From Lingula anatina (Eukaryota; Animalia; Brachiopoda), in assembly GCA_051362555.1 (NCBI GenBank), contig CM120641.1:32246401-32310400 (forward strand): a stretch of 64,000 nt of DNA. The letters are read 5' to 3'. This document shows positions 10,139 through 58,971 of this stretch, one piece after another. Position 1 is the first letter of the stretch, and every line of letters starts with the position of its first letter. Below the pieces are notes generated by a model. The model was not told where the DNA came from. It made no database searches and was given only the letters and a program-made list of their open reading frames with translations. Both the position numbers and the translations under genes were made by a program.

Positions 10139-10177
<39 letters not shown>

Positions 10178-32857: not shown

Positions 32858-32900
<43 letters not shown>

Positions 32901-34148: not shown

Positions 34149-34169
34149 GGATGTCATCCATAAAAATAA
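34149..34169 (-). mobile_element. Inner part of the right-hand TIR of the GGCCAC-ended transposon (outer part at 58958-58971)
   Basis: GGATGTCATCCATAAAAATAA is the reverse complement of the inner part of the TIR seen at 8652 and 59331. Confidence 0.75.
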
Positions 34170-37100
34170 CAAGGCAGCAAAGCTGTCAAATGTACAGACA
34201 AAAAACAGAAAATAAAGATGCAAAATAGGTCATTTTGTCAATTTTGATGCAATAATAAATAATGCTTATAATAGCACTGTCAGTCAACACTGAATTTTAA
34301 TCATGCACAACAGGTAACATGGTCAATAACAGGAGTGGACCCAGAGATATTGCAAAATTTACCTGCATAATTATCACTGCTTCCTTATTATTAATCTAGC
34401 AGACTGGCTTAATCTTTGGGAGTTTACAGGGAAATATCAACAACTGTGCTTTATGTAATCTCATTTAATAACCTATTAATTAGGCAAATGACTTTATAAC
34501 TCTGAACTTAGCTTAGTGATACCCAAGGGAAATTTACAGACTGACCCTCTCAAAGGTCTTTCAGGCCCATAAGTCACATCTTAAGAAAAGCACAAAGTAA
34601 TAATGCACAAAATAGGATGCTGTCAATTCTGATGCAATAATAATATATTACGCTTAACTGCAAGGTCAACATCAAATTTAAATTATGCAAAACAGGTAAT
34701 ACCGATGAAAGTAAAAGCAGGCCCATGAGAGTTCAAGTTCATACTTAGAAAATGCCAGAATGAGAAAAATGAGAATTTCACAAAAAGTTGCGTTAATTCA
34801 ATAAAAAATGATAATCCAATAGAGCTGGTTTTCTTATTTGAGCTGTATGTCAATCCTAAAAATCATTCTTTTAAGCTAAAAAAAATAATAAGTAACACAG
34901 TTTGCTTTTTATCATAACGTTTGTGATGACAGTGCACGAAGTTGGCTTTTTGTCAATTTTGATGCAATATTACATAATGATTAACTATTATTACCACCAT
35001 TTATTTTTATTAATAACGTGGTCATTTAGAAAATTTGATTACCACTGGGCTTCATGACCATGGGAGTTCCAAGTCCCACATTGAAAATGCCAATATATGA
35101 AAGATAACAACTTCACAAACATGTACAACAGAAAAAGAAACCAATTAGATTGCTTTTCCAACACAGGGTGCATTTTAGACCTGTGTTTCTTTCCTGTAAG
35201 TTTTAAGAAGAGTAAGTAACATGGTTTTTCTTTAATGGTCACTATAAAAGCAGTGTCCAAAATAGAGGTTTCTTCATTTTCGTTGCAATATTACATAATG
35301 CATAATGACCATCAATTTTAATAATGAAATAAAATTATCATGGATATTCAGACTAGCAAAGGTCTTCAAACCCATGGAAGTTCAAAGTCACACCTTGAAA
35401 ATGTCGATATGTGAAAAATTTAAGGATGAGTGCAGATAACCATTGGCAAAGTGCCCATCGTCAAATTTTTAAAATAATTTGCTATTATAAAGTTTATGCA
35501 TATATTTGTTGTGTGAAAAAATATTATTTGGTTTGAGGCATCGTTTGAGGCATCGTATTTTTAATGAGTAATATGTGGGGGTGGAGGTAACCAGATTTAC
35601 TTGTTGTATGCAGTCTAATATGAATCAGAGCAAGTTATTTCAGCATATATATTGCATAAATAATTTTTTCTAATGAAACTTGTCTTGTGGTGAAAAAAGG
35701 AGTTATATGTTAAATAATTGCGATGTGGCACAAGTAAATGGGAAAGTAATTTTTTTTGTTTGTTTGTTTGTTTTTTTTAATCCTAGAGAAGAGAGGGAGG
35801 GGTGGTGTATTACAATATTTTCTCACAGACACCATCACTGATTTCACTTAACTGTATAAAAGTCTTGTAACTAGAAAAACTTGTATCAGCGTATTTATTA
35901 ATTTTATATAACTTTTCTCACAGACCAGCATTTGTTGGTCTAAATAATTATATTGTTAACCAATACACATTTTGTACAAAGCCCTATAGAATAGTAAAAA
36001 ATGCTAAAAGCAAAAGGCTGTTACAGTAACACAAAAAAATCATGTGTTAAAGCACTCTAAACACCTATTTGGAATGTTTCCATTAACCATACAATAAACA
36101 AGGTATAAATTGTACCAAAATAATGATAAGGTAAAAGTAAATGAAAATATAGTACACATAATAACAGTAATGGCCAATAATCTGTATGACAATGAAAATA
36201 AATCATCTAAAAAGTACTTCATATATGATAATGTATGTGATAAAGACCTTGTATAGAAAGCAATGCAAGAGTTATTTTATACAAAATATATAAATATGAG
36301 AATAAAAAATGTATAATAAACAATAGATAGTTAATCAGATGTGCTGTCTGAAACACTTTCTGCCTCGCTAATACTCTCACCACTTGATGTTGGTAAATGC
36401 AAGAAGTTATAATGAGACTCTTTATAACTTCTTGGTAAATGTGAGGCATCCTTCCTCCCTACCCCCCCCCCCCCACGCACACACACACAAACACACGCGA
36501 AAGTTTTTTTAAACCATGCCAGTTCTGAACTGTGAATAGGGGAACTATGGGTCGCTGCATGCCATCTTCTTTCAAGCAAATCAAAGAAATGTTAAAATAT
36601 TTAAGCAATTATAAATAGTAACTAAAGCATTTTAATTTAAAAATCACACCAATCATATTATCTTTTCGTTATCCTTTCTCCTTGCAATATCAAAGCAACC
36701 AAAAAAACTGGACAACTCCACATAAATATTAATAGCAAAAATGTATTATCACTTTATCTTTATTGTCATCATCTGTGAAACAAGATATGAAATGAAAGTT
36801 TCTTCAAAGTGCATTGTGGATCAGTGTATATTGTGGATAAGTGTTCCAGTGTACGCGGACAAGGTCGTTCAATGACGGCCTGGGGCAGGTTAGTAAACTT
36901 CAAGTTGATATCATGTCAACAAGATGCAAGGACACTGTCAATCACAATTAGGGGAGAGGCATGCGTGGTTTCCCTTCAAAAACTATTATAGCCTAACATT
37001 GATTCTTCCCTCCGAAGTAAATGTGTGATTTTTTTTTCTTTTTAAACAAAAAAGTTAAGGTATGAAAACGCTGAATGTATTTCAAACGTAGGTGTATATA

Positions 37101-37458
37101 CAATACAAATAATGAAATCTGTGTCTCACTCTCACACGACACCCCCGCGTCCAAACTGACAGGATGGTGGCGACAGCAACGCCCCCAGTCGACAATCTAA
37201 GATTGGAAGTCTATGAGCGATAGAATAATTAATGCCAAATTTCCGCATGACAACGATTTATAGACTCCCGGGAATTATTTTCCCTCAACGCTCTTTGTCG
37301 CGCTGGCGGTCAATGCAGCATTTATTTCAAAACAAGTTGACCGCAAATTAAGCACGATTTTGCACCTTCAAGTTCCGTGTCACGTTTTCATATCATGCAT
37401 CTTTTATTTCTACAAGTATTCTCTGCCCAAAGTGCGTAAAAAAAGAGAGTTATCTTAC

Positions 37459-37572
37459 CAGGTTGTTTAGAAAACTTCTTTTTCCTCCGACTACACGTCT
37501 TCTCTCCCGTTCACCTCCAGGTTAAAATGACCACTCAGCTTCGCTTCTAACACCACTACACGTCACTTCCGG
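37459..37572 (-). promoter_or_regulatory. Housekeeping-type promoter (ETS-CRE composite CCGGAAGTGACGT) and non-coding first exon
   Basis: Motif at 37560-37572; the exon ends at CTG|GTAAGA (37459); local CpG enrichment. Confidence 0.55.
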
Positions 37573-38970
37573 GCACAATCAGTCTTCTCCGATTCCCTTT
37601 ATTAACACACGTAGGAACTGCAAGTCTTCAAAATGGTTGAATAAGTTTAAATCAGTGAAAAGGGATCCAAAAAATATTTTTTCATTTTAATACTTATCAT
37701 TCATCAGCTTTTGCATTTTCCATCTATTTAATCTCAGCTGCTTTTGATAAGTGTTTAAATCATCAATTAATTCTCGTAAAATATAAATAGTTTCAGTCAT
37801 GAATAATCCTTAGATATACACCCAATGCATATTTTCAAAGATGCCAGTGTGTTATTGTGATGTTATACAAGTTGTTATTATTTTAACAAAAGTTAAAAGA
37901 AAATGATAAAAAAACACCAGACTAAGTTATGGGTCCCGTGGCAATCTTCCTTCTACAATTTAAGTGTGAATTACTAGTAACTATGAAAACAGGAACTCAC
38001 AAACAATATTACAATCACCATTTACCGAATCTGTATTAATTATTACTTTCAACCTTAAAACATTTAAGTCAACCATGACACAATCTATAAGAGAATTGAA
38101 TTGTGTTAATGGTATGGCAACTCCTGAGAACATCTTCAGTTATAATATAATGACAGTGTTTCAAAACCACGATACATATTAAATACAGGCTTGCTTAAAT
38201 CTTAAACGGAAAGGAAGTATTATCAAGTGTTGCACCTGCTCAGCAAAGCTGCAAATTTTATTTTGCAGCATCACAATTTCACTAGCACAAATCAGTAATA
38301 ATTGTTAGTATATTTGTAACATATTTAATATTCGTCATTTGCCTCTAATCTTCGCTTAACATTATTAAAATATTACCACACATATTTATGATAAATGTAT
38401 GCATATTTGTAATAACTAAATTTTGTCATTTGCTACGGGAATGGGGGGGGGGGGGTCTTAAAAATAAAAATTTTGGGCCGCAATTCCCACAGCAAATATG
38501 AAGGAGTACCAGTAGATAAGGCCGGTGCCATGAAACTGAGGGTCCGTGTGACAGAAAGTCCGTCCTCCATATAGTTAGGGTTAGTTTGACCTAAGTAGGT
38601 CAAAATCTAGGGCGAGGCTCACTTGTACAAATGAATGGGAAGCGGACTCTCTGTCATGGGGGACTTTCTGGTACATGTCACCGGTGATGGCACAGAAATG
38701 GGAAAATTCTTGGTTTTGTGTAGTTTTGCTTGCATTATACATTTATATAAAATCTGATTCTCAAAATAAATGCAATCGGCAAGTATTATGCTACAGGGAT
38801 GGGAGTGAGGTGTTCTTAAGAATAAAAAAATTGGGCCTTAATTCCCTCAGCAAATATAAAATAGTGCCAGTAGATAAGGACAATAATGGCACAAGGATGG
38901 AAAAAATCTTGGTTTTGTCTAGTTTTGCTTGCTATATGCATTTATATAAAAAAATTGGGCCTCAATTCCC

Positions 38971-39006
<36 letters not shown>

Positions 39007-39204
39007 GTGCCAGTAGATAAGGATAACAATGGCACAGGAATGGGAAAAAATAGTTTTTTTCTCGTTTTACTTGTGTTATAGTCAAGAACATATACATTTA
39101 TAAACAATGTACCCCTTCGTTAACATTAAGAGGTGTTGGGTTCTTAAATCTACAGTGGGATTTATTTAAGTAAGATAGTTACTTCTCTAATTTGACTCAG
39201 GAAA

Positions 39205-39450
39205 GTCTAGGTAACGGCTCGAGTTATTCCTGGGGCTCCGTAACTTAAAAGCATCGCGTATTGCGAACGGCGATATCACATAGAGGCTACAGTGTATTAC
39301 ATGGGGCGAGCATGGGCAAGTAATGGAATCGAGACGCTTGCGCTCGGTCGCAATGCGCGCTGCTTTCGAGTTACAGGGCCCGGGAGCGCAAAGTAACGCA
39401 GCACCACAGCTTTGTATCCAAAAACCAAAATTCAACTCATTACCTGGACA
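39205..39450. other. GC-rich imperfect inverted repeat / fold-back
   Basis: CCTGGGGCTCCGTAACTTAAAAGCATCGCGTATTGCGA pairs with TCGCAATGCGCGCTGCTTTCGAGTTACAGGGCCCGGG. Outer pair GTCTAGGTAA / TTACCTGGAC. Confidence 0.7.
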
Positions 39451-39814
39451 TCGGCTAGTTTTATGGAAGAAATTGGAGTGACAGAAATAGTGACGAGATT
39501 GTAAAAGTTTAAGTGAGAGGCGAAAGAGGATAATTTCTACTAATGATTAAACGAGCATACATGCGAGTCCATTTAAATTTATTTGCAAGTCTCGCTTTTT
39601 TTTAGCGATCTCTACACGACCACTTTTTTACAAAAAAAAAAGAAAAAAGAAAGAAAGAAAATTATAGAATATTTTTTATTCAACTATTATGTACAATTTT
39701 GAATATTTACAGTTGATTTAAAAAGGACTAATAATCGGTAATGAACTACGTAAACGCAATGAATTAATACATAGCAGTATTATCAAAAGTTCTAAGATTT
39801 TCCATCGTCTTCAT

Positions 39815-40033
39815 CTAGCGTCGGAACGCACACAGTCCGATAATGCAGGTCTTGTGGTCGGAAACTGGTACCAGATGCTCTCGGGCCGTGGGGAAAAACC
39901 CGTCTAAACCCTTCGTGGGGAATGCGGGAAAGTGCCCACGCCCGGATAATTCGGTCCTTATAACATGACGAAATCGGTTTCTATTGGCACGGCGCTGCGT
40001 ACAGTTCAAGAATCGTCCCGTTTTAGACAGCAT
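39815..40033 (-). CDS. Possible small TATA-driven single-exon ORF (72 aa, Arg-rich), unknown
   Basis: TATATATA at 40073-40080, ATG at 40033, CpG-rich body, AATAAA at ~39580. No homology recognised. Confidence 0.25.
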   Translation of the reverse strand: MLSKTGRFLNCTQRRANRNRFRHVIRTELSGRGHFPAFPTKGLDGFFPTAREHLVPVSDHKTCIIGLCAFRR

Positions 40034-42689
40034 TGTGTGACGGAATAACCTTTGTGTTGACAAACTATTCTCTATATATACTATACACAAGGTGAGGGAT
40101 AAAAACTTATTAAAGTAATTCTTACAGAAAAAGGCACTGAAGCCAATAAAAAACTAACAAGAGACAACAATTAAACAGAATCATTTTGACTTTATCTTGG
40201 AGAATTAAAACCATAAATAAAGTTAATCATTTTACAACTGCAAGCATCTTTCAAAACTTGATTATAGTTCTCTTTATGATAAAATGCAAACAGATTCAAG
40301 TAATATGATTACAACTCGGGAATATCAATGATTTCAACTAAACTGTGATATATAATTCGACTTAAAATACCAGGTTTCTAAAATGTAACTTTGCACTGAA
40401 ATCGCAACTACCTGCATGATACAAGTACAGAATAAAGCAAGCTTGCTTCAAAATATTTCGGATCTCACATTACACTGTATGACCGCCCATGTAAATTTCA
40501 ATCCAAATTTTTTTGATCCGGAGAAAAGGTGCATATGTGATGAAGTGGATGTATTTGTCAAGTATAACACTTGAGAAAATCTGAATATTAGTAATGTGAT
40601 CTCTATCTTGAGAGATGACAGCATCTCTCAAGAAGAGCAGACTGTACAAAAAATATAATGAAATATTTCATTACAGATTTTGCACAATCTATCAATGTAA
40701 AATCTCTTCATGTAAAAGCGTTTACCTGAAGTCAGATTTTACAAAGATGTGAGGGTTTGTTAGTAAGGTTAGTGTGCAGGTTAAGACCTTTTCAAATGCC
40801 ATACTGACAAACAACTCCACATCATCAAAAGCACAAATTTGAAAAATGACCATCTCAGATTGAAACAAAACACAGACGACCACAAGTGGTGGGAATGTTT
40901 TTGTGAGCAAAAAACTATCTGCATTCAGAATGTGGATAAAGCAACTCTATATTCAAATTTATTAATATAATAATTATAGCAACTGTAGAGGTAGACTTTT
41001 CCTACAGAAGCACACATCTTATTCAATTGATCTTGTATGGAATGAAAAATTATCTTGAACCTCAGTTTTCTCTTCTGTTATTGAAATAAAATGGTTCACT
41101 GCATAAGGCATAAAATACAAATGAAATTTGATGCAATTTCACCTTGACATGTTTGTGACCCATGAACCCCAAATATTCTCAGCATCCAAAAGACTGATAC
41201 ATTATTAGACTGTATTCCCACTACATTCAGTACTGTATATTGCCTTCATTACCATTCCACATTCTTTATATTTGTTTGCAGAACAAGCCGTGTCCTTCAA
41301 CACCAAAACTTGTGGGATGTCCGAGCATCCATGAAAGTGTCCACAGGGCTCCTTGTGCTCCTTGCTAACGCTGTACAGTGTTCAACATCTTGGACATTTG
41401 GTCTTGGGTCGACGTTATGTGACATCATGCAGGCGTAATTATTGGAAAACTCCCAATTCGTAGCCTACAAATGAAATCCAACTTTTACTCAAAAGTATGA
41501 AAAGCTATATCGAAAGCTTGCAGTAACTGCAACAAAGAAAGTATATCACTGGTATTTACACACCGTTAACATTAATGAAAAGCTTGGTTCTTAAAATGAT
41601 CAGAGCGTTATTTCCAAATGTACAGTGAAATATGCTTCCTTTATTGAAATATATATATTAACTTTTTAGAGTAAGTAGACAGCAGTCTTCAAAAAATAAA
41701 TTATTTCAAACATTTGACAAAAAAGTAAGAAAAGATGTTGCTATATTGAATATTGTAATGTTAGCCTACATGTTAAATTGTTGACTGTCTGTGCTACTTC
41801 TAATTCTACTGTTTGTTTACATAGGATATAGTTTTTGATCACTGTCAATAATAAGAAATGCCATAATACACCAATAATAATACTTAAAAAATTCAGAACC
41901 ACTTTTCTTAAGTTGTTGATCCCCAATAACTTACAAAGTTATCTGTATAAAGATCCCTCAATCCTGAAGAAGTGTTTCATCTGGAGGTTTGGTAGTTGCA
42001 ATCTTCATTTTTAGAATCCACCACTTTTGGTAGCCTGCAAATTTAAATTATTACTTCAAAATGTAATAAAAGTCAACCATTTGTATATGAAATGTGTTTT
42101 TAAAGTTTCAGCAGTTTGATGGGAAATAAATATAAAAAGCACTTTTGTCACAAACTTGGAAAAAACATTCAAGCGAAATATTTTGACATGCCACTGGCGA
42201 CCTTCAGACTTAATGTCACAATGGGGTATTGCACAAATTAGTTTTAACGAAGGAAAAGGAACACTAACAGCATTTAAACGACTCTACTCAAAGACAAGCT
42301 TGGTAAAGCCTGAACAATCTAGCTATATAGATCCAGGAGTGTACTAGTATTCCATCAAGTGTTTAATTTGTGAAGGATTTATATGGGAGAGACAAAGAGA
42401 AAGTTGAACGTTAGAGTTAAAGAACACGGGAAGGAATAAGAAAGGGCACCCGAAGAGGGAAAAATACACTACAGCCCAAGGTAGCCTTCTGCTACAACGA
42501 ACCATCACAAAAAAACATTGATTGGGAGAGTGCCAAGATTCTACAAAAAGAAAGTGACTGGAGAACAAGAGGCGTAAAGGGAGGCATATAAACCAGGAAA
42601 ATGCCTAACAATCTGAACAATATAGAGAGATGGAAATAAATACTCACTTCTACGGTGGCCTATTATTACCACAACCACAGCACTGGAGG

Positions 42690-43294
42690 TGGGGGTGGTA
42701 GCTGCTAGTATACAATTTCTGGACCAGTGACAACGTCCCGGAGTCACATTGGTGGTGGGTGTTGGGGGAGGTAGCTCCAAGTAATCTGGACCAGTAACCA
42801 CGCCCTGGAGTCACATTGGTGGTGGTGGGTGGTGCGGGCGGTAGCTCCAAGTAATCTGGACCACTGACCACGCCTCGGAGTCACATTGTTGGTGGTGGGT
42901 GGTGGGGGTGGTAGCTCCAAGTAATCTGGACCATTGACCATGCCCCGGAGTCACATTGGTGGCGGTGGGTGGTGGGGGCCGTAGCTCCAAGTAATCTGGA
43001 CCAGTGACCACGCCCCGGAGTCACATTGGTGGTGGTGGGTGGTGGGGGCGGTAGCTCCAAGTAATCTGGACCAGTGACCACACCTCGGAGTCACATTGGT
43101 GGTGGTGGGTGGTGGGGGCGGTAGCTCCAAGTAATCTAGACCAGTGACCACACCTCGGAGTCACATTGGTGGTGGTGGGTGGTGGGGGCGGTAGCTCCAA
43201 GTAATCTGGACCAGTGACCACGCCCCGGAGTCACATTGGTGGTGGTGGGTGGTGGGGGCGGTAGCTCCAAGTGATCTAGACCATTGACAACGTC
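42690..43294. repeat. 70-bp minisatellite, ~8.5 copies, G-rich on + strand
   Basis: The unit with GGAGTCACATTGGTGGTGGTGGGTGGTGGGGGCGGTAGCTCCAAGTAATCTGGACC recurs at an exact 70-bp period. Confidence 0.95.
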
Positions 43295-44739
43295 CTGCAG
43301 AATATTGAGACTGTTGAGGATCTGAAAGTTGACGAATGGCATGTCAAAATTTGTATGAATGATAAGGTTTTTCCACATCTGTGACAAATTAAAAGAGCTT
43401 TTTACCTGTGAAAAATGAGCTTTGAATTTGCTAGAGTAAATTGTAAATAGAAAACAAATGCCTGCACCGAGTGACAGGTCCCAAAAACAATTGTCTAAGA
43501 CCTTGCACAAAATGCTCAGTTTGTTGGAGTTGCACTGATAAAAGATTTGTATTATCTATACAATGAATGACAATCTAGTTCATTTACTCTTATCCTGTCC
43601 CATAACTTACCTTGAATGCTCTCTAATCACAACTACTGAAGGGCTCTTGAAACACTATATGATATAGCTGACATGGCTTTCTCCATTTTAGCCTTGTTAA
43701 CCTTGTTAAAATGGACCGTCATCAGGACAGGCGCTCGCCAATGCTATCTGCCTCAACTACAGAATAAAAAATTATAAGTCAAAAGTTTCCCTCTTTACTT
43801 CTCCCACCCAAATCCAATCTACTAACCATAAATATCTTAATCCTAGGAGTGGGTCATGGGTAAAAGACATTGCCTTCTGAATGTAAGCTGTCAAATTAAT
43901 GTGGCTAACGGTTTTTAGTTTTTCAAGGTAAGAAAAATCACTTAAGTGTTTTGTTTTCCCCCAAAAACATGAGTGATATGTACCTTTTAAGGCTTGATAG
44001 GTTTCCATCTCTGTGAAACGCCATATGCTTCTGATGCTCCCCCATGCAGCCCCCTAACATACAGACCATGGCAGGACTCAACCATGCACCAAGGATTGAA
44101 TGTGACCCTCTTCTTGCACCTCTTTCAAAAAAGCGGGACTTCATCAGGAATTGCCCTAATTGAGTTCTGTAGATAGAAAGGAAAATTTGATTAGTTTTCA
44201 AAAATTGTATATCAAAAGCAGTCTGCAGCCAGAAAAATTGTTGGAATCGGTAGATTTCCAGAATGTGTCAATTTGGTGACATGGCTGTTAGATTTTTTCT
44301 ATAAGTATGAAGAAGAGCTTTTGATTTATTTTAAATGTAACTGTTACATCATGATTCGAGAAAAATGTCAAGGTCTTGTTAATACAAATATTAATGCAAT
44401 CCAGTCTAGTCCTATTGAACTTTGTATTCGAACCAGTGAATCAAGATTCAGACATCTCTATCTAGTTTTTAGGAAAGAAGGTGGACTGAATGGCCAGTAG
44501 GGTGAAAAGTTTATGGCACAGACTGCTGTTGAAAAATTAATTTTAGTGTATTGTTCTCGCCAGTAACACGGGTTACCTTGCAGGTTTTTCCGCCTCAGTG
44601 AAACACCATATGCTTCAGACGCTTCTCCAATGCAGCCTCTTCAACAGACCGTGGCAGGACTCACTGGCACCAAGGATTGAGGGATGTATCGGAAGTGTGC
44701 ACGTGGCCCTCTTCTCCTTGCAGTTGCCATGAAACGTTG

Positions 44740-45454
44740 GACAGGACTCGCTGGACGCTTCCTAGTGCAGCCACCTCGTAGACAGACCATGGCAGGACTC
44801 GCTGGACGCTTCCCCAGTGCAGCCACCTCTTAGACGGACCATGGCAGGACTCGCTGGACGCTTCCCCAGTGCAGCCACCTCGCAGATAGACCATGGCAGG
44901 ACTCGCTGGACGCTTCCCCAGTGCAGCCACCTCGCAGATAGACCATGGCACGACTCGCCGGACGCTTCCTTAATGCAGCCACCTCGTAGACAGGCCATGA
45001 CAGGACTCGCTGGACGCTTCCCCAGTGCAGCCACATCAAAGAGACAGACCATGGCAGGACTCGCTGGCACCAAGGAATGGTCAAAGTAGCTTAAGTGTAG
45101 ATGTGGGACGTCTCCTTGCAGTTGTGTTCTGTCAACAGAAAGAAAAATGAATTAATGACTTTTCATACTATGTCAGCACTCTGCAGTCAGGCTTACCTTT
45201 AAGTGGTTTCCATCTCATTGAAACACCATATGACAAGACTCGCTGGACGCTTCCCCAGTGCAGCCACCTCGTAGACAGACCATGGCAGGACTCGCTGGAC
45301 GCTTCCCCTGTGCAGCCACCTCGTAGACAGGCCATGGCAGGACTCGCTGGACGCTTCCCCAGTGCAGCCACCTCGTAGACAGACCATGGCAGGACTCGCT
45401 GGACGCTTCCCCAGTGAAGCCACCTTGTAGAGAGACCATGGCAGGACTCGCTGG
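44740..45454. repeat. 52-bp minisatellite in two blocks (~6 and ~4 copies)
   Basis: CCATG(G/A)CA units start at 44787, 44839, 44891, 44943 and 44995; second block at 45235-45454. Confidence 0.95.
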
Positions 45455-45515
45455 CTCCAAGGGATGGTCGAAGTAGCTTAAGTGTAGATGTGGGGTGTCT
45501 CCTTGCAGTTGTGTC

Positions 45516-46685
45516 CTGTAAACAGAAATAAAAACGAGATTAGATTTCTTTTATTTCTTAAACTCCCCTTCCAAAAAGAAAAATAGATTACATACCTTAA
45601 GGAGTGTAGTCGAAGTCCCACAGGTGGCGCCCATCATCTTCTATGTCCTGTAAACAGAAATAAAAATGAGATTAGATTTCTTTCATTTCTCAAACTCCCC
45701 TTCCAAAAAGAAAAAAGATTACATACCTTAAGGAGTGTAGTCGAAGTCCCACAGGTGGCGCCCATCATCTTCTATGTCCTGTAAACAGAATTAAAAACGA
45801 GATTAGATTTCTTTCATTTCTCAAACTCCCCTTCCAAAAAGAAAAAAAATTACATACCTTAAGGAGTGTAGTCGAAGTCCCACAGGTGGCGCCCATCATC
45901 TTCTATGTCCTGTAAACAGAAATAAAAACGAGATTAGATTTCTTTCATTTCTCAAACTCCCCTTCCAAAAAGAAAAAAGATTACATACCTTAAGGAGTGT
46001 AGTCGAAGTCCCACAGGTGGCGCCCATCATCTTCTATGTCCTGTAAACAGAAATAAAAACGAGATCAGATTTCTTTCATTTCTCAAACTTCCCTTCCAAA
46101 AAGAAAAAAGATTACATACCTTTAGGAGTGTAGTCGAAGTCCCACAGGTGACGCCCATCATCTTCTATGTCCTGTAAACAGAAATAAAAACGAGATTAGA
46201 TTTCTTTCATTTCTCAAACCCCCCTTCCAAAAAGAAAAAAAGATTACATACCTTAAGGAGTGTAGTCGAAGTCCCACAGGTGGCGCCCATCATCTTCTAT
46301 GTCCTGTTAACAGAAATAAAAACGAGATTAGATTTCTTTCACTTCTCTAACTCCCCTTCCAAAAAGAAAAAAAAATTACATACCTTAAGGAGTGTAGTCG
46401 AAGTCCCACAGGTGGCGCCCATCATCTTCTATGTCCTGTAAACAGAAATAAAAACGAGATTAGATTTCTTTCATTTCTCAAACTTCCCTTCCAAAAAGAA
46501 AAAAGATTACATACCTTAAGGAGTGTAGTCGAAGTCCCACAGGTGGCGCCCATCATCTTCTATGTCCTGTAAACAGAATTAAAAACGAGATTAGATTTCT
46601 TTCATTTCTCAAACCCCCCTTCCAAAAAGAAAAAAAAGATTACATACCTTAAGGAGTGTAGTCGAAGTCCCACAGGTGGCGCCCA
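45516..46685 (-). repeat. 131-133-bp tandem array; each unit is a 52-nt exon plus a ~79-nt intron
   Basis: Nine AAG|GTATGT donors (CATACC at 45591, 45722, 45853, 45984, 46115, 46247, 46379, 46510, 46643) alternate with TTTCTGTTTACAG| acceptors. Confidence 0.9.
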
Positions 46686-47042: not shown

Positions 47043-47103
47043 GAGTGAACGCACTTTTAAAATTTTGCGCTTTTATACCTTTGTTGACGTATAGTCACAT
47101 GAT
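47043..47103 (-). promoter_or_regulatory. Core promoter: E-box, CRE half-site, TATA and Inr
   Basis: On the minus strand: CATGTGAC, ACGTCA, GGTATAAAAG (TATA 47077-47071) and TTCACTC Inr with +1 about 31 nt downstream. Confidence 0.65.
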
Positions 47104-50100
47104 GGCGTTCTTGTTGTCACCAATGGTCAACTTGTTCAAAGGGGATGGCCTTTGATAGTGATGCGCAAAGTTGGTAATAATATCTTATCAACATATACAT
47201 TTTCTTTTATATTTTATATTTTGATTATTCTGCCTGTCAGTTTGTTTATAATAAGAGTAATAAGTTCTAAGCAATGTCTGTGAAATGTGCAGGCAAATTT
47301 GATGAAAATTTCTGAGCAACATACCTTCTCCCTAAAATTTTTATAGGTACGATGTCCGTTAAGCTGGTAGCTGTGAACTTCTCGCAGGCTACTTTAGTGT
47401 GCGTGTATTTGAACACTGATCCAAAATGTGGATAATGTAATTTGGCGTAGGGTGACTGCATTTTTGAGGCAGCCTGAGGGAGTATGGTTGTTCTGATTGT
47501 AGTGAAAAGTAGAGAGACAATTGGAAGTACACTGGACTTAGCATGTTCAGTCACCTAAGTACTCTGAAACACATTTTGTAATCAGCTGACTTGTTATTCT
47601 GAAAAATGAAAAAACAAATTATATTGATTTACAAAACTGGAAGATAGAAGCAGTGGATCATATTACTTATGCCAGGCAGAAGAAACGACTGAATGTATAT
47701 TTTTATATTCAAAACGTCTACTGATTTAGGTAATAATTAATAGCCTGGAAGATAGCAGCAGTGGATCATATTACTAATGCAAGGCAGAAGAAACGAGTGA
47801 ATGTATATGTCTATATTCAAAACGTCTACTGATTTAGGTAATAATTAACAACTGACGTCTCCCTTCATGGCGTCGGGTTATCAATACTCCCACACCAGTA
47901 ACATGAGTTATGAGTTGAGCAGAAACAGAAAAAGATTTTTTATAAAGATAATGCAAGTATATGTGTAGGCCTATTTATCTTTATTTATATTACTAAACGT
48001 AAGAATTGTTTGTCCAAGTGAAACTTTACTTACATCAGCCTAGCAACTAAATCTGACGTTTAAACGTCTCCGAAAATAACTAGAATTTTTTGAATAACGC
48101 AATAATGCGGCCACCTTCGAGGTGTCGCCCGGTTTTTAAAAATTGAAAAAAGAAACTTTTCGGGGCGTCTTTTGTCGCGGGTCATTATTTTCAGTTGTTT
48201 GATGTTTTTTGTAATATTTTAGCCATTGATAGAATCTATAATTCAGTTACATCCACGATTAGCTAGACGAAATGGTGACAGGGAAAAGTCAAATTTTTTA
48301 AACGGCAAAAACTGCATTCTCTTAGAAAGCAATTAGCAAACATTCATTACTGTGAAAAATTCAACCGAAGTTGAAGACAAAATGTGTCAAAAATAAACGT
48401 GCATGTCGTAATACCTATTTAAAGCAGTCTAATTTTTGTTAGTATTAAAAACGTGTAAATATTATCCACATAGGATATTTTTAAAGCCTTCGATATTTAA
48501 AATATTTAAACTTCCCATACTTTGAGGCATGCATGAGTCGGAAAATGTTTGCATAATTACATAAAAAACTAGAATTATCTCTTTATGTGACCACAGTTTA
48601 ATCATGTGCCTTACATCATTCCCTTAAACCCTTTCCCAATATCGATTTCAGATATTTTTGACACATTTTGTCTTCATCTGAATCACGTGAACGTTATCAA
48701 GTGTCATAAGGCGTACATTACGAAAATATTTAGGTCTTGGAACGTGATTTGATGACTTTTTTAAATGCATATATATACAATTATAAATTTATAATTAAGT
48801 TATTTAATATCGAATTATAAGTTCTGACCGAGTTTTAAAATTTATTTTAGGAGGGGTAAAAAACCCCAACCCCATCTAATATATATTGGATACATCCGTA
48901 GGCTTATGTCCTTAGAACTAGGCGTACAAAATGTGTCTTCTAGCTAAAGTTATTATTATGGTGTATGTGTAATTAAAAAAAAAAACTACGTAAGAGTGAC
49001 AATAGGTCATGTGTTTCGAATGCACCCCCACTCTCCGATCAGACATTACTTTTGTATAATTCACAGTCCATCTTCGTTGTAGTTTGTGACTTTACGTCAT
49101 TTCTTAGTGAAGCGGTGTTGTCCTCAATTTACCTTAAATGTCCAAATTACTAAGAAGAAACCACTTGCAAGAATTATAAGGCTTTTTATACTGCTAGGTC
49201 TATAGACGTGATACACACGATATTTTGCAACCCCACAAAATCTGTTTCTTAAAATTTTGGTTCCACCACAAAGCTTAGCACTATCATTCTTTTTTGCTTT
49301 ATTGATATATTTTCAGTACATAAATAACCATTGTCTGTTGCCCAATTTTGCACAAAATTAAGATAATCCCCAAAACCTCATTAATTGTGTTTCCTCCATC
49401 CCAAAAAATATTAAAAATTTCTCCTCATAATTTAGTAGTGCACTGGCATCTACACAGTACATAAATGTATCATTATAATAACATCTTGTTCTTACTGATA
49501 ACATAATTAGCTTAATTCCATAACAATTCTAAAATGTTAATAACAATGAAAATTCAAAGTAGACGGCAAGATTCTTATTGTGCTGATAAAGATAAAATAT
49601 GTAAATTCAATACTGATTAGGTACTGTATACTGGCTCATTGAAAAAAGGGAACCGTTTCACAAAAAAATTAAGCTTAGACTGCTAAATCTGGATAGCCAA
49701 CTATACAAAGTCAACTTTGCGATATTGTCTTACAACTACAATTTTTTAAGAATGATTGGTCCACAGTTGATGAGTAGAATATACATAAATGGGCTACTGA
49801 CACCACTGCAAGTAAAAGACTTGCCAAGACAATCAAAATGTAAATCAAAGGAAAGTGAAAAGAAAGTAAAAAGACTGGAAAAAATGAGGCAAAATTGATA
49901 ACTTGGTTAATGAGCGAACAATACTCTAGTTTTGATTAAATCAGAACTTTTCTTGCACCTTTTCTTGGGGAATAGGGGATTGGTGTAGTGAAAGCCCAAC
50001 CTTAACCTTTGGATGCTATTCTCATTAAACATATGCATAAAAGACAAAATTTAGACCACAAATAGATTCATGCAATCTACCAACCTTTTTTACAGTGAGT

Positions 50101-50999
50101 CATTGCAACTTATCAGTTATTTCTGGCCTAGGCTATCTGTAAGATTCTTACAACTGTGAAGTGCAACTTAGCCAGCTAAGTCTTTATAGGCTCAGATTTT
50201 AGACTACAAACCAGCTTCAAACATTTAGTAAAGCAAGTGCAAGGAATAGTTAGTTTGAAGGCTCTGCCTCCCCATGGGGTGAGAACAAACACAGTCACAC
50301 TGTATGATACATTACAGAAAACATACTCTGGAATTTTACATTTTCACTAGTATAGAATCAATTTGATTTCTAAAACTGACTTATTATAAAAATACTCCTG
50401 TCAATTTAAAACTTTTTCATAAAGCATATCTGAAATACACTGATAAAATGTTATTAAAAATATTAAAATTTGATATTCACAGATAAAATAGGCTCAAGTC
50501 AAAATGATTAAGACAATTATTGAAGCATTATTCAAACCCCAATTTTGATTATTTTCATACAATTAGTGATTCACAAGTTCTTTAACAGAGTTGTACCTAA
50601 TCTGACTACATGATATCTATCAAAATCTCTCTAAAATCAAGTGACAAAAAATGCCCACAGTTTCAAGCACCATAAAATATGGCTTAAGTAAGTAATATCC
50701 TCAATTGTTTCATAATAAACGTCATGTCACTTGAATGTACCATTCTCCAGAAAAAAAGATGAACTTGCAAGGTTTGATAAGTCTGCGTTTACAGGTAGAT
50801 GTCATAGTTTAATATACATGAGGCAGCTTTATATCGTGGTCAACAATATTATATTATATCAGTTTCTCTAGCCTCCATGTCTTATTCGTCATAATATTTT
50901 GATTTTCAAATTCAGGGTCCCCTAGTAAAAGATCTTGCATTTCCTCTTGATCACAGAAGAATCTGAGTTGAGAATACAGTTGAGAATACAGAGTTAAAA

Positions 51000-51737
51000 T
51001 TAGGCCTCTCCTCTCCACTCGGGGTCCTCTTGCAACTGAACCTGGCTGACATCCATGGTTACATCTTTAAAAATAATATATTCCCAAAAAAGTTTAAATG
51101 GTGCAGTAATAATAATAATAATAATAATAATTAAAATCAATAAATCTTGGACACATTACTTGTCGTACGTCTGAATAACATGACAGACAAGAAGAAAATA
51201 GTTGCTCTTGAAAATGGACTTTAAGTAATGAAAATGCAAGATGACAGCTAGTAGATAGTACATGTGCATGCAATTTATTTGAAATTCTGACTTTTCAGTC
51301 CTAATGATTTAGGTTATTTATAGCCAATAATCTGAGAAAATAAAATATTCAACAGAGAAATTGATTGCAATAAATCCTGCTCGTACCTGACTGCTTAATA
51401 TTCACTGCAGCAAACCTCTCTACGACATCGTCGAGCTGATCAGTAGGGTCATCGTAATCACATCCTGTGTACGCTTTTTTCTCGAGGCAGTACTTAAGGA
51501 AACTACACCAAAGAGAAGTTGAAAATAAAGAAAGAATTGCCTACTTTCTTTTGTCTTTCTGTATGGACTTTCATTCACAATAAAAGAAAGAATTGCCTAG
51601 TAGACACTATTTTGTCTGTCAGTTTGGAGTTTAATTTACATGTTTTTTAACTTTCCTTTTTTTTCTATTTTTTTTCATTTAACAGTCTGTCTGAACTAAA
51701 ACATGATAGCTTTCTCTTTTTAATCTTTCTATCCTCT

Positions 51738-51777
<40 letters not shown>

Positions 51778-54282
51778 TCAGTCTGTCTGAACAAACATTA
51801 AAATTTTAATTTATGAACTTTATTAAATCCTTAACATTTCTTTTTTTGTTGGTTTGTCTGTCTGTCTGAACAAGAGTTCTTAGAAACAATGAGATTAAAT
51901 AAAGATTAAATAAAAGAAAAAAAATTTGAACCTAACATGGCTGATTTGTGTTTGGTTTGAAAAGGTCTTATAATTTGATTGAACTTTTTTTGCTTACTGA
52001 TCAAATAAATTAAAATAATTCACTTCACCTGTTCCAATGTTCATCTTGCGAAAGAAGAAACGGATTCCCTACAACAATCAATAGGGCCTTTGCTCTTGTG
52101 ATCGACACATTAAACCTCTGAAAAAAAATTAATCCCACATGTAACTGTATGTGCGGGTGAACACTGAAGACAGTATAGTCTGAGACTAACTGTTCATATC
52201 TCTTCTGTGAATTCCGCATCACATGGCATAGTCTCTGCAGTGCCATAGTGGAAAGAAATGGTGATGAAAATAGTATGGACTATAGCTGTTTAAATAACCT
52301 TACATTTCAAAATATGTGTGTGCACATCCACATGTACAAAGTCTTATGAATTATGTGTTCACGCATATACACATGCCACAGCACAATCATGGTAATGACA
52401 CTATCTTTTCAATGAGCAAAAATTATCAAACTTTCAAATGTATACCTTTATAAACACATAAAGTATATAGTATTAGTGGTACTCTTACTGCACAGATTAG
52501 AACTATAGAGTAGCTTACTTTTTTATTCTGTTGTGACCATCCAATAGGAATTGGGTAGGAGTATTAAAATTTTAAAAATTAATGGCCTAAAAAATACCGC
52601 ATCTGTAAAATTCACGATTTCCCCCCCACTGAAATAAATCAAGTTATTACCATATGCTGAGGTGGCACTAGCAATTTTTTCTTAAGCCAAATTACTACTT
52701 TTTCATCACTTTTTTCTCCAAAATGGTTTTAATTTGACTAAAATAAGTCAAATCAACCCTATTTTGTTTAGCCAATTGAAGTCAGTTTTAGCATTTGGCT
52801 TAATTGGGCAGTGTTAACTCTACCCCAGTTTGTGTGTCCACATGCATAAGTGTACAAATGACTGACCTTTGGGTTCTTTAAAAAGCCCAGCTTGAACTCT
52901 GCGTCCAGAGCCAGCTAATCAGGGTTACTCCTCACGGTGGACACCATGATGACCCGTCTCTCCTGACCCTGAAATTCCTCCACACTGCCCACCTTTAGTC
53001 CCGAAAGTTTTTCTTGAACAGCAGTTGCCTCAGTTTTTGAACCTGTGGAGAGAATAAAAAGGGATGTCTGTGCATTTACAGGCCCGTAACCAGCAATTTC
53101 AAAAGGGGGGTTCTTTTTCTGAAAAAGTGGACCTTTTTCCATAAAAACTTCATGTACCTAGATCAAATTTTACCCACAGTGGACCTTTTCCCAGCAAAAG
53201 TGGCAGTTCTTTAAAACCCCCCTGGCTACGCGCCTGATTTAATACTCATCCGTTACATTCAGCATTTACTTTATCTTTATCTTATGTTACTAGTAGTTAG
53301 CCATAACTCTGAACAGGCTGCATACTGTTAGTACATTACATTATAACCAAGCTCCGGTGGATTAGTAATTGAATTTGCCATGTGAGATGGGAGTGAGCAA
53401 ATTCACCACAATTTTAATTTTAATTTTTTAAATTTTTCTTTATACTTTATCACATGTACGCTTCTGTAGTTAAAGTAGGACTTTTCATAAGCCTAAGAGT
53501 ACCATATCTATAACATACTATTAACTCAGATGTATTGTGGCTGTACTTTAAGGTAAATGGAATGTTGGACCTTTAAAGAATGTTGACTACTGGCTCTTTA
53601 GAGCTACGCCACATTCTTAGAATCTATTGCCCTAACTCAGCAAAAAGGCCCAGTTAATAATTGTAAACAAATTTGCAAAGTTTTACTAGGCAGCTTCAAT
53701 TAATTGGCATTTGGCGTGAAGCCCGATTTGATATTGCAAACTGTTGTTAGTAACTTGAAAAGGGAGAGGGACTGGGGAGGGGTTGCCTGTATTCATCATG
53801 GAATAAGCTCTGTCATATTTCCCTCACTTGTTTTCTGTAGGGGGAAATAATTCCAATTTCATTCTGCAAGACTCGGATGCCTCTGGCCTCCAGTAGCTTC
53901 TCCACATATCCCAACACAGTAGTTGCTTCTTCTGGATTGAAGAATGATGGACTCCTTTCCTCCCTCATGTCCTCCCCAACCACTCCATGGAATACAAAGG
54001 GATACCCCATTTTTGGTAAACCTTCCCAGTTGCAGAGGGACTCCCTGGCAAGTCGGTCAGCACAGGCTTCTAGCTCGTTGTCGTAGAACTGTTCGTTTGG
54101 AAGCTTGAGGATAGCAGGATGTGATCTGTAGTTTTTGAGGAGTTTTGTAAGGAGGAATGGGTTGTAATGGCCTTGACGTTGGTACAGTACATCTTGATCG
54201 TCGTCATCTGAGCCAGGACTCGAACCGCCCCTCTTCTTGTACACATCACAGTAGGTCATGTATTTTTCTAAGAGTGAGAGTC
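51000..54282 (-). pseudogene. MOV10: 5'-truncated, disabled copy of MOV10 RNA helicase (C-terminal five exons: 54282-53828, 53042-52867, 52117-52029, 51502-51387, 51064-51000)
   Basis: UPF1-like motifs [63 protein letters not shown] and a MOV10-type tail EDPEWRGE*. A 1-nt frameshift gives TAA at 52997-52995, and there is an in-frame TAG at 52917-52915. No N-terminal exons in the window. Confidence 0.9.
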
Positions 54283-55039
54283 CTGTAAGACATTAAAATG
54301 ATGAGACATTTCATATACATGTATAAATATATAAATGAAGTTATTCTTTATCAAAGAAACTAAATAACTATGAGGTTCAAAAGGTTTTAATTTCACCATT
54401 ATATGTACAAAAGAGATGAAAGAGACATTTTGTCAATGCTTAAGTACAAAATCTCTACTACCACATGTAAAAGTATTTCAGTGTTTGCAATTTTACCAGA
54501 GCTTATAGAACTACCAAAAAAAAAACTGATCCTTGTCAAAACCTAGTCCTAGTCAAAAGAAAGACTTTCTTTTGTCAAATTTAAAATTATTGAAGGAATA
54601 ATTCTGGGCACATCCATAGCAGTAAAAATGTTCCATTAATTGCATTACCTTTTATTTTACTTAAATCTTAGAAGCAGAAATCACTGGTCAATAAAAAGCT
54701 TTTAGAATAAGTCCTACATGTATATGATTTTACCAGACTCTCAAACACCTTTGTAAATATTATAGTTAATCATAGTACTTTTGTCCACAATTTTCAACTT
54801 CACTTTTCTTTTAGTCATAGTCTTATTTCATTTTTATTTAAGCCCGAGGTAGTAATGTAACTTCCCCTTTTAATGCATTTCATAACACATACACTCACAC
54901 ACACTGGCAGATTAAAACTTTACTATTACTCATATTATCATTTTTATTATAATGGCTGTTGGGGGCATATTATTATAATTTTAATTTAAAAATATATTGA
55001 AAACTATTATAATTATAATTATATATATTAAAAACTTAT

Positions 55040-58000
55040 TTGCAATATAAAACAAAATTTACCTGCATAATTATCACTGCTTCCTTATTATTAATCCAGC
55101 AGAGAGCTTAACCTTTGGGAGTTTACAGGGAAATATCAACAAGTGTGCTTTATGTAATCTCATTTAATGGCCTATTAATTAGGCAAATGACTTTATAACT
55201 TTATAACTTAGCCTAGTGAGACCCAAGGGAAATTTACAGACCGACCCTCTCAAAGGTCTTCAGGCCCATAAGTCACACCCTTAAGAAATGCACAAAACAA
55301 TGATGCACAAAATAGGAGACTATCAATTCTGATACAATAATACATTATGTTTAACTGCACAGTCAACATCAAATGTTTTAAAATTATGCACAACAGGTAA
55401 CACCGACGAAAGTAAAAGCATAAGGCCCATCAGAGTTCAAGTTTATACTTAGAAAGTGCCAAAATGAGAAAAATGAAAATTTCACAAAAAATGCATAAAT
55501 TTAATAAAAGTGATAATCTAATAGAGCTGGTTTTCTAATATGAGCTGTATGTCAATCCTAAGAATCATTCTTGTAAGCATACTAGTTGAAAAATTAGAAA
55601 GTAACAGTTTTCTTTCTATAACGTTAACGGTGGCAGTGTACAAAAGAGGTTTTTTGTCAATTTTGATGCAACATTACATAATGATTAACTGTATAAATAC
55701 CACCAATTTTTAAATATCTACTATTAAAAACATGGACATTAAAAAAAGGTGATTACCACTGGGCTTCATGCCCAAGGGAGCTCTAAGTCCCACATTGAAA
55801 ATTCCAGTATGTGAAAGATAAAAATTTTCACAAAAAACCTCTATAACTTCCAGAAAATTAACTAATGAGACAGATTTTCCAACTGAAGCTGTATTTCAGT
55901 CCTATGTTTCTTTCCTTTAAGTGTAAAAAGAGCAAGTGACATGGTTTTCCTTTCACGGTCACTAAGGAGGCAGTGCCTAAAATAGGGTTTTGTTCAATTT
56001 TGATGCAATATTACATAATGCTTAACAGCATAATAACCATCAGTTTTTTAATGATAAAATAAAACTATCATGGATATTCACAAAATGTGTCTAGCCCATA
56101 GAGTTCAGAAACACTTTGAAAATCCCAAAATCTAAACAAGAGAAACTGTATTAAAAAGAGTTTATTTCCATTTTCAATACCTTTTTTACATGAAAAAAAA
56201 TAATCGATTTACTGTCATTTTTATATGATCAATTAAAATATGTTGTCAAAGGAAAAATATCAATAGAACAAATTTAAATGTCCAACTTGCTCCATTCTGA
56301 GATTCTTAACTTAGTGAATGATTGAATCTGACGAACTTCAATGATATGAGTTCCCTTCCATTTTTGATACTTTATTACAGAATTGCACAATAAAAGGTGT
56401 ACTGTCATTTTTATATAATCAACTAACAATATTTTTAAGAAGCAGAAAATGTCAAAACAACATTTTTACATATCTAATTTGTTCCATATTGAGACTGTTA
56501 ACATGCCTAAGAATTAATCTGAAGAAAAGCCACTTATATGCAAAAAGGCTAATAACTTCATCAAAACTTAACTGATCAAGCTTATTTTCAAACTTGATCT
56601 GTATATTAGTCAGACTGATCACTCCTGTAAGTTTCAAGACAAAAGGCTGATTGGTTTTCCTTAAAATGTGTTATCAGTGTTGCATATATGCTGAATAATG
56701 GAAAAAAAAACAGCATAACTTTAAATTTGTAAAAATAGTCCAATCAAGCCAATTTTCGAACTTGTTCATCAGTTCTGTAAGTTTCAAGCCAAAAGGTAAA
56801 ATGGTTTTCCACTTATCGTGTTATCAGTGCTGCATATATGCTGAGAAAATGCAGAAAATGGTTCATTTTGTTAATTTTGATGCAATAATAAATCATGCCT
56901 ACAATAGCACTGTCAATCAACACTGAATTTTAATCATGCACAACAGGTGACATCGTCAATAACAGGAGCGGATCCAGAGATATATTTTCTGACAGTATTC
57001 CAAATTATTTTTGTTGATCCATCCTACATTTTTGATGGTCTTCCAACAGAAAATAAACAGATACCCATCAATATGAACTTTAAAATCTGAAAGACCCAGA
57101 AGACGGCCTCAATCCACCCCTGCAATAAGATTACAGTTTCAGGACCAAATTCACATAATGAAAATCCCAATATTTGAATAATGATGACAATGCATAAAAT
57201 AATATTACATAATGTTTAAAGACATAAAAACCAATGCAACTGTTTATGTGGAAATACAGAGAATGTGAAGAGCTTCAGGTGGATGGGAGCTGAAAATGCC
57301 AGTGTTTGAAAAATAAATTAAAAAGAAAACACAACAAAAATATCCCATTAAAGCTGCTATTCAAACTTTTAATCTTGCTGTAATAACACTTGGACCTAAA
57401 TAGAGCTATTTAGGTCCAAGAATAACATGATATGAATAACCCCAATGTGTTTGAGGATAATAAGGCACTGTTATTCAAATTTTTTTTTCTTTTGTTAACT
57501 TATTTGCAATATTAAACAACATTTACCTGCATAATTATCACAGATTCCTAATTATGTGACACAGTTAAGAGAGCTTAACCTATGGGACTTTACTGGGAAA
57601 TCTCAACGTGTGTTTTATGTAATCTTATTTAATGGGCACTTGGAAATTAATTAGGCAAATGATTTTATAGCTCTGAATTTAGCTTGTGACTACCCCAAGG
57701 GACAATTACCACCATCCATAAACAGTAGCCCCATATAGCACTCTATAGAGCTGCATTGCTTCCAGAACAGAAAACAATCACTCTGATTTTCCAACACAAA
57801 CTGCACGTCAGTCTTACAAAACTTTTCAGTAAGTTTGAGTATCATAAGTAACATGGTTTTTCCTTAATGGTCATTCCGGCAGCCATTTCCAAAATAGGGT
57901 TTTCTTCAACTTTTATGCAATATAACATAATGACCATCAATTTTTAATAATAAAATAAAAGTATCATGGATATACAGAAAATGTGACATGGAAAGGTCTT

Positions 58001-58900
58001 CAAGGCCATGGAAGTTCAGAGTCACACTTTCAAAATGCCAAAATGTACCTGTATACAAGAGATAACTGTATTGAATTGATTTTCTTCCATTTTCAACACC
58101 TTTTTTTCATATAACAAAGTAATCAATTTACTGTCATTTTTAAATGAACAACTGAGAAAATTGTTGACATAGGAAAAATATCAATAGAACAATTTTAAAT
58201 GTCCAGTTTGCTCCATTCTGAGATCCTGAACATGGTGAATGATTGAATCTGACAAACTGTAAAGATATGAGTTTATTATTATTTCCATTTTTTGACACTT
58301 TATTACACAATTACAGGTTTACCATCTTTTTTATATAATCAACTAACAATATTGTTAAGATGCAGAAAATGTCAATTCACAGATGAGATTGTTAACACGC
58401 CTAAGAATTAAATCAAAGGAAAAAACACTTATATACAAAAAAGGCATAACTTCACCAGAACTGAACCAATGGAGCTTATTTTCGAACTCCATCTGTATTT
58501 CAGTAAGACTGATCACCCCTGTAAATTTCAAGACAATTGGCCAATTGATTTTTCTTGAAATGCGTTATCGGTATTGCATACATGCTAAAAAAAGTGAAAA
58601 AACAGCATAACTTCCATAAAATTAGTCCAATAACGCTGATTTTCAAACTTGACCTGTGTATTATGAATAGTCATCAGTTCTGTAAGTTTCAAGCCAAAAG
58701 GTAAAACGGTTTTTCACTTATCGTGTTATCAGTGTTGCATATATGCTTAAAAAAATGAAAAAAGAGCATAACTTCCATAAAAATGGCCCGATCATGCTGA
58801 TTTTCGAACTTGACCTGCATATTATGAAAGCTCATCAGTTCTGTAAGTTTCAAGCCAAAAGGTAAAACGGTTTTTCACTTATCATGTTATCGGTGGTCAA
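55040..58900. repeat. Diverged long tandem blocks (~2.45 kb period) forming the body of the Helentron-type element; homologous to 34200-35460
   Basis: ATTTACCTGCATAATTATCAC at ~34357, ~55057 and ~57521; 34230-34350 matches 56860-56982. Confidence 0.85.
56963..57122. mobile_element. MITE with 6-bp TSD (hAT6-like), same family as 18069-18236
   Basis: CAATAA|CAGGAGCGGATCC ... AATCCACCCCTG|CAATAA. Confidence 0.75.
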
Positions 58901-58957
58901 AGTGCACGGCGACGACGACAGACGCAGGTGATGGCTATATGTACAGTGTCTGTACAT

Positions 58958-58971
58958 AAAAAAGCGTGGCC
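58958..58971 (-). mobile_element. Outer tip of the right-hand TIR of the GGCCAC-ended transposon
   Basis: AAAAAAGCGTGGCC|TTA is the reverse complement of GGCCAC(A/G)CTTTTTT, with a TTA flank. Confidence 0.7.

Follow-up and report, generated by a model that had tools for sequence, protein, structure and literature searches.

A probable 24.8-kb composite Helentron-type element with host-derived cargo, inserted in a transposon end in Lingula anatina

How could one terminal inverted repeat (TIR) of a DNA transposon come to lie in two halves almost 25 kb apart? The question is raised by 64,000 nucleotides of the brachiopod Lingula anatina (GenBank assembly GCA_051362555.1, contig CM120641.1, positions 32,246,401 to 32,310,400 of the forward strand), a stretch that we call the window and whose own coordinates we use throughout. 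We think it probable (roughly 0.7) that the 24.8 kb between the halves is a composite rolling-circle element, in which the termini of a HINE, a non-autonomous Helentron-type element, surround multicopy host-derived cargo, and that it spread as a unit. An earlier note on this DNA had proposed a single non-autonomous rolling-circle element. The termini and the multicopy cargo uphold that view, although a composite of diverged HINE copies describes the element better than a swollen HINE does.

The insertion is best seen in its target. The left TIR of the host transposon family, 33 bp long, is intact at 8652-8684 and again at 59331-59363 (both plus strand, each preceded by TTA), and its reverse complement is nowhere whole in the window. 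Instead there are two parts of a right TIR on the plus strand, an inner half of 21 nt (34149-34169) and an outer half of 14 nt (58958-58971) with TTA next to it; every one of these coordinates, given in the earlier note, is confirmed in the sequence. TTA lies outside all three TIR ends, and the copy at 8652 is a possible partner of the split TIR. The chance expectation on both strands of 64 kb is 2e-7 for the 21-mer half and 0.02 for the 14-mer half with one mismatch. Together the halves make 35 nt rather than 33, and when two A's are discounted, 32 of 33 positions equal the reverse-complemented TIR. The 24,788 bp between them (34170-58957) interrupt the TIR exactly at both termini of the insert. 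The split falls in the A-run of the TIR, which on the element's strand is a T6 target, and two T's are present in excess. They may belong to the terminus of the element or else stem from a 2-bp duplication, and thus the claimed lack of a target-site duplication (TSD) is not strictly shown: insertion into a T-run without a clear duplication stands, but the two extra A/T pairs are a possible 2-bp duplication.

This precision also bears on whether the assembly can be trusted. If collapsed repeats had joined two unrelated HINE copies across the cargo, the misjoin would not have restored both halves of one TIR to the base. In addition, cargo contigs of up to 3 kb from an independent sequencing run are colinear with the window. 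Both junctions do lie in repeats and no bridging read is found among the listed pieces, but we consider a misassembly exceedingly improbable.

The element, read on its own (minus) strand, has the terminal layout of Helentrons. From 5' to 3' come a T-run, a subterminal inverted repeat (subTIR), an inverted repeat, about four GTC units and 161-bp repeats, and at the far end the subTIR again, a palindrome and TT. The 5' terminus (58900-58957, minus) comprises the 11-bp subTIR at 58947-58957, an adjacent hairpin with a 9-bp stem (-6.2 kcal/mol) and the short GTC microsatellite. In the 3' terminus (34170-34200, minus), the subTIR at 34190-34200 is followed by a short, weak palindrome (4-bp stem, -2.6 kcal/mol) and TT. 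The subTIR pair is perfect and occurs once per strand in the window, at 34190 and 58947; chance would supply 0.05 copies on both strands of 64 kb. The subTIRs, hairpin with microsatellite and palindrome that the earlier note described are thus all present, even if the microsatellite is short and the palindrome weak. Over the whole element (34170-58957, minus), the longest stop-free frame is 159 amino acids and is an exon of MOV10, so the element has no Rep/Hel gene.

Sequencing reads add independent evidence for the 3' end. They were compared over 33000-52900, in three of 12 DNA contig runs (X4, X3 and X1) and one of nine RNA runs (X13). At the 3' boundary (34168), loose ends occur in 66 X3 contigs and 353 X13 reads with an agreement of 0.41, which indicates many different flanks. 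The 3' end, the only one covered in this way, is a genuine boundary of the element, and the flanks next to it are many and unrelated. A search of metagenome contigs for the 3' terminus gave 0 matches and is uninformative.

The subTIRs, the 5' inverted repeat with its microsatellite, the 3' palindrome, the T-run target, the interspersed 3' end and the lack of Rep/Hel coding place the element among the HINEs, whose layout is defined by Thomas et al. 2014 (PMC4067079) for DINE-1/HINE and is known from the oyster Cg_HINE (PMC7492417). The likeness extends to 11-bp subTIRs, a GTC-type microsatellite, central repeats of about 160 bp, insertion into T-runs with a variable number of T's, and the absence of coding capacity. 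In contrast, a length of 24.8 kb, 19.6 kb of cargo and construction from three diverged HINE pieces set it apart from the elements in the available text of these descriptions. We also considered and rejected a canonical Helitron (HLE1). Those elements have TC...CTRR ends and insert between A and T (PMC11417382), whereas the ends here are subTIR ... palindrome-TTG between T's.

The interior indicates how such a large element could have arisen. It contains three pieces of HINE sequence, all on the minus strand. The first (56855-58957) is a near-complete monomer with 161-bp central repeats at 58564-58895; it stops about 50 bp before a 3' end, lacking the 3' subTIR and palindrome, and holds a MITE-like (miniature inverted-repeat transposable element) insert at 56962-57123 that has a second copy at 18068-18237. 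The second (55033-56849) is an internal partial monomer without termini, 74-80% identical to the first. These two are fused at about 56855 into a right-end dimer without any 3' subTIR or palindrome. The only 3' terminus is 19.6 kb downstream of the dimer, on the third piece (34222-35420), an internally deleted 3' half whose read depth equals that of the cargo. Aligned with the second piece, the third has 81% identity over 1094 bp, and with the end of the first, 91% over 129 bp; the three pieces differ from one another by 19-26%. The earlier note had seen homologous satellite-like blocks at both ends. The homology is real, but the blocks are internal HINE sequence in three diverged pieces, and the left one ends near 35400-35420, not at 35460. 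The two ends of the element belong to different copies and the upstream copy has no 3' terminus. Because the three pieces are diverged and the upstream two lack a 3' terminus, this is likely a composite (end-bypass) element.

Alternatively, a large mobile element of independent origin, or a mosaic of several, may be nested in a resident HINE; it would consist of the cargo together with some old HINE sequence at the left end. Some observations fit this idea: a TATA-driven unit in the cargo has diverged relatives on other scaffolds, X1 depth is uneven, and the reads compared stop at 52900, before the right side. However, after a simple insertion the two HINE halves would be contiguous, but here the left and right blocks overlap by about 1.1 kb at 81% identity. 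No TIR, long terminal repeat or TSD is found at the cargo junctions, nor do inverted or direct repeats mark separate cargo ends, the junction zones sharing only AT-rich 8-10-mers. There is no transposase-sized frame either, the longest being the 159-amino-acid one. We therefore regard nesting as rather improbable.

The cargo itself, 19.6 kb of host DNA between the HINE blocks, carries all of its genes on the element's own 5'-3' strand. The most recognizable is a 3' fragment of MOV10 at 51003-54282 (minus), corresponding to amino acids 813-1112 of the 1112-amino-acid Lingula anatina protein. As the earlier note had claimed, it retains introns. Its five exons (with identities to the protein) are 54282-53828 (145/151), 53042-~52863 (15/17 and 40/44), ~52117-52030 (29/29), ~51505-51388 (37/39) and ~51065-51003 (20/21). 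The second exon contains a frameshift and a stop, and no upstream MOV10 exons are present in the 64-kb window. The exon at 53819-54277 is 95% identical to Lingula anatina MOV10; the other 119 matches listed are at 45-70%. The MOV10 piece is a frameshifted pseudogene fragment and a dead passenger, a refinement of the earlier claim. We rejected a native gene with the right HINE block in an intron, given that only amino acids 813-1112 are present, with a frameshift and a stop, in a region that is multicopy. MOV10 as the element's transposition helicase was rejected as well, the piece being a broken fragment of a host RNA helicase. Downstream of the MOV10 stop, 48936-51003 (minus) is transcribed, with X13 minus-strand RNA depth of 24.6-94.5. 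This region is likely the MOV10 3' untranslated region, and the RNA may come from the parent gene.

A second part of the cargo is a transcription unit built from repeats (42648-47085, minus). It has a TATA box at 47077, eight micro-exons of 52 nt, and exons made of 52-bp and 70-bp repeats; its longest spliced open reading frame is 132 amino acids. The micro-exons are of one type, with canonical splice sites, and lie in a 131-bp array (45512-46685) whose units each pair a 52-nt exon with a 79-nt intron. Because 45537-46745 is missing from one X1 contig, the length of the array differs among copies. In RNA run X13, minus-strand depth over 42296-46943 is 12.6-25.8 and opposite-strand depth is at most 0.8; this depth sums any copies, among which the transcribed one is indistinguishable. 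The spliced transcript proposed earlier is therefore supported by its micro-exon splice sites and by minus-strand RNA, the splicing itself being predicted from the splice sites and RefSeq models. The unit has six database matches, two of which are L. anatina gene models with 77% protein identity.

The ETS-CRE promoter exon of the earlier note fared less well. The motif is present (37572, minus), with an exon-like stretch and a GT donor (37461-37572, minus), but it has no RNA support in X13, where opposite-strand RNA is greater in its bin and the next bin has almost none. A search of Rfam over 34000-52700 gave 0 matches at the gathering score.

Is the cargo repeated elsewhere in the genome? We compared the depths of individual contigs, because summed depth is not copy number, using 24 of the 33,236 pieces, eight long contigs from each run, of which one in X1 lies in the left HINE block. 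The single-copy yardstick was the native SLC38A9 allele at 33454. The A allele there encodes the isoleucine of the reference SLC38A9 and is carried by 11 of 11 RNA reads, and it thus marks the native exon. The yardstick contig has a depth of 12.4 (X4), 126.4 (X3) and 84.6 (X1), and the long contigs have medians of 190, 1871 and 914, respectively, giving ratios of cargo to single copy of 15.3, 14.8 and 10.8. A single-copy cargo, the outcome that the earlier note had set beforehand as fatal to its proposal, is contradicted: in the same runs, the native SLC38A9 allele is 11-15 times lower in depth. With multicopy cargo between its termini, the full 24.8 kb is likely to have spread through the genome as a single unit. 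Furthermore, between X4 contigs and the window, 44 of 8,231 bases differ (0.53%), compared with 19-26% between the HINE pieces, which indicates that the amplification was comparatively recent.

These values also bear on a different history, in which a small HINE dimer first entered the TIR and the cargo and part of the left block came later by ectopic recombination or gap repair. The source would then have been a multicopy family amplified otherwise, for example as a tandem array. Consistent with such events, 1.1 kb of direct homology flanks the cargo, DINE-1/DNAREP1 repeats are reported at the breakpoints of Drosophila duplicates (PMC4067079), and the listed pieces include no bridging read. 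However, the flanking homology is just 81%, low for a recent event in a copy 0.5% off the consensus, and the left-block variant (34989-35400) is seen only at cargo-level depth. The 11-15 copies would still demand a second mechanism. We consider this history unlikely.

Depth changes sharply at the left side of the element. The left HINE block at 35168 has a depth of 145 (X4), 1459 (X3) and 564 (X1), and the cargo just inside it, at 35601, has 138, 2731 and 654. At 33454, 0.7 kb outside the element, total depth is 12.4, 126 and 240 (X1, two alleles). This is approximately single-copy, so most copies lack this flank, and from the contrast, the amplified DNA has its left limit somewhere from 33454 to 34989, an interval that includes the HINE 3' end. 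With the boundary bracketed just to 33454-34989, the amplified unit could have been slightly larger and have included the host TIR end, as a cut-and-paste (Zator- or Harbinger-like) composite formed after the HINE insertion. In amphioxus, Zator-1 arms with 33-bp TIRs and TAA/TTA TSDs move a gene between loci (PMC12905397). In Lingula, however, the TIR was broken by the insertion, with 14 bp left at its end, and the approximately single-copy flank at 33454 puts the left TIR at 8652 outside the unit. Window-type alleles at 33862 and 33915 have the depth of about 1-4 copies, although private mutations could also explain this. Such a composite seems very improbable to us.

We favor, therefore, a composite HINE, and postulate that it formed as follows. 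A Rep/Hel transposase acting in trans would nick at the 5' end (58957) of the HINE dimer. Strand displacement, meeting no stop signal, would continue across a MOV10 intron, the gene's five final exons and further host DNA, and would terminate at the downstream hairpin of the third HINE piece. Capture may have taken more than one step. The new unit would then have been copied repeatedly and recently, about 10-15 times, both ends presumably moving together, and one copy would have landed in the T-run of the host TIR.

Several points weigh against this account. The 3' subTIR is 20 bp from the end, compared with 38-60 bp in mite HINEs (PMC4067079), and the autonomous Rep/Hel partner is putative only. 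The reads cover 33000-52900 and thus do not tie the cargo to the right junction, to the 56855 fusion or to the 5' terminus; no piece among the 24 listed of 33,236 crosses the left junction, the X1 contig stopping at 35400. Contig depths vary 2-fold in X4 and 6-fold in X1 (564-3464), and copy number may not be uniform along the cargo. Single-copy depth was taken from a single site, with one contig in each run, plus residual depths of 9.1 (X4) and 80.4 (X3), and the depth ratio cannot separate dispersed copies from a tandem array. For the repeat-built unit, the relatives in L. anatina are on scaffolds of 36 kb and 687 kb, and MOV10 is on one of 1.67 Mb; this speaks against capture of one contiguous stretch, and several captures may have made the cargo a mosaic. 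Lastly, no short Lingula MOV10 fragment is found among the best 120 of 1351 protein-database matches, a weak objection in that pseudogenes are rarely annotated.

A mechanism of this kind is known from plant and bat Helitrons. End bypass and composite transposition are established in canonical Helitrons, including bat HelibatN539 (PMC4224331) and maize elements of up to 39 kb (PMC6431247). As in those elements, the 5' end and the 3' end in Lingula come from different copies in the same orientation, and intron-containing gene fragments are carried and re-amplified. They are HLE1, however, whereas the Lingula ends are of the HLE2/Helentron type, and the parent locus was seen for HelibatN539, whereas the Lingula element is known from this one locus and from reads. 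In Helentrons, the available text of PMC4067079 raises composite transposition merely as a possibility. The same source describes HINE-like sequence at the breakpoints of amplified Drosophila fragments, the DINE-1 duplicates Kep1, CK2beta-tes, NACbeta-tes and hydra. Transposition of these was left as a possibility; the Lingula element, by comparison, has intact termini and a split target.

The size of the element appears unusually large for this animal subgroup. Captures reported in Helentrons are 244 and 87 bp of histone genes in Culex and 1.7 kb in a proto-Helentron, with none given for mite HINEs in the available text (PMC4067079). Oyster Helitron-like elements average 1,092 bp, and 2% contain gene fragments (PMC7992393); oyster HINE variants are mainly 2-4 kb (10.64898/2026.02.10.705023), and non-autonomous elements in Fusarium are 0.8-1.9 kb (PMC5148889). 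Captures by animal Pack-TIR elements have a median of 224 bp (PMC8277862), and a fungal Helitron-like element amplifies a whole gene (10.1101/2025.11.13.688278). Neither a HINE with multi-kilobase cargo nor a Lingula Helentron was found in the literature searched, which was largely open-access.

The host of the insertion may itself be a large mobile element. Its TIR of about 33 bp and the TTA outside the TIR ends, a candidate TWA target duplication, would suit Zator, the pairing of 8652 with 58971 being a candidate only. PIF/Harbinger elements likewise use TWA targets. Zator-1 of Branchiostoma belcheri has a 33-bp TIR, TTA/TAA 3-bp flanks and possible gene cargo (PMC12905397), a likeness by description only. 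Scanning of 13 frames found no transposase-like match besides a Tc1 element; this Tc1/mariner element (21703-23092) has perfect 32-bp TIRs and HTH and DDE_3 domains in two frames. Two gene pieces lie side by side: a 3'-only duplicate of SLC38A9 at 32288-33485 (minus; amino acids 453-589 of 589, with a 3-amino-acid deletion and a 2-amino-acid insertion), whose exon at 32288-32527 has one match, L. anatina SLC38A9 at 93%, and a RhoGAP 3' fragment at 28400-29975 (minus). They are bracketed by the TIR at 8652, which TTA precedes, and by the split right TIR, which TTA follows, and the host may thus be a gene-carrying TIR element of 25 kb, or about 50 kb including the Helentron. The window allele at 33454 is found in run X1 only and is absent from X3 and X4, a distribution that suggests presence/absence polymorphism.

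Other features adjoin the host TIRs. At the right end, 58975-59226 is a near-perfect palindromic MITE with 96-bp arms that are 100% complementary and TTA on both sides; from its ends, we take it to be Harbinger-like. The end of a very high-copy repeat (33515-33825; X1 summed depth 327,000 at 33719) is cut off at 33824, close to the host TIR end. Just inside the TIR at 8652, a region at 9795-11755 (plus) has a TATA-like box, a short first exon and a 216-amino-acid frame (10388-11035) with a Cys/His-rich start; the antisense frame overlapping 10388-11035 has no Pfam match. Elsewhere in the window are a 635-amino-acid frame with NB-ARC and TPR matches, an NLR/STAND-like gene (836-2743, plus), an apparently complete three-exon aquaporin (MIP) gene (62100-63830, minus), and tandem arrays of 146 bp (7.9 copies, 6025-7175) and 34 bp (12.9 copies, 15633-16069). 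A further HINE-type element may be centred on the 146-bp array.

Whether HINEs, like canonical Helitrons, capture and amplify host DNA was a question that Thomas et al. 2014 did not settle, nor did they decide whether DINE-1-adjacent duplicates originated by transposition (PMC4067079). A locus with intact HINE ends, a base-exact split target and recently amplified multi-kilobase cargo makes the capture question testable in an assembled animal with public reads. The precedent from maize and bats limits the surprise of the mechanism. The locus also suggests a way to new mobile units of large size, the pairing of old, diverged HINE relics. Composites like these would collapse in short-read assemblies and could inflate counts of gene families.

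We can also imagine a more far-reaching picture, although as a whole it is doubtful: in Lingula populations, 25-kb Helentron composites form a young family that continues to spread, with its own TATA-driven spliced unit, the 3' third of MOV10 in more than 10 copies and small RNAs that hit MOV10 mRNA, and the copy described here sits within a gene-carrying, Zator-like element of about 50 kb (8652-58971). MOV10 restricts transposons. If this picture were true, small RNAs against the element would target the host's MOV10 mRNA as well, and a rolling-circle transposon would gain a hold over the machinery by which it is silenced. A conflict between transposons and host over captured genes has reportedly been described in maize, and Lingula would then provide its animal counterpart.

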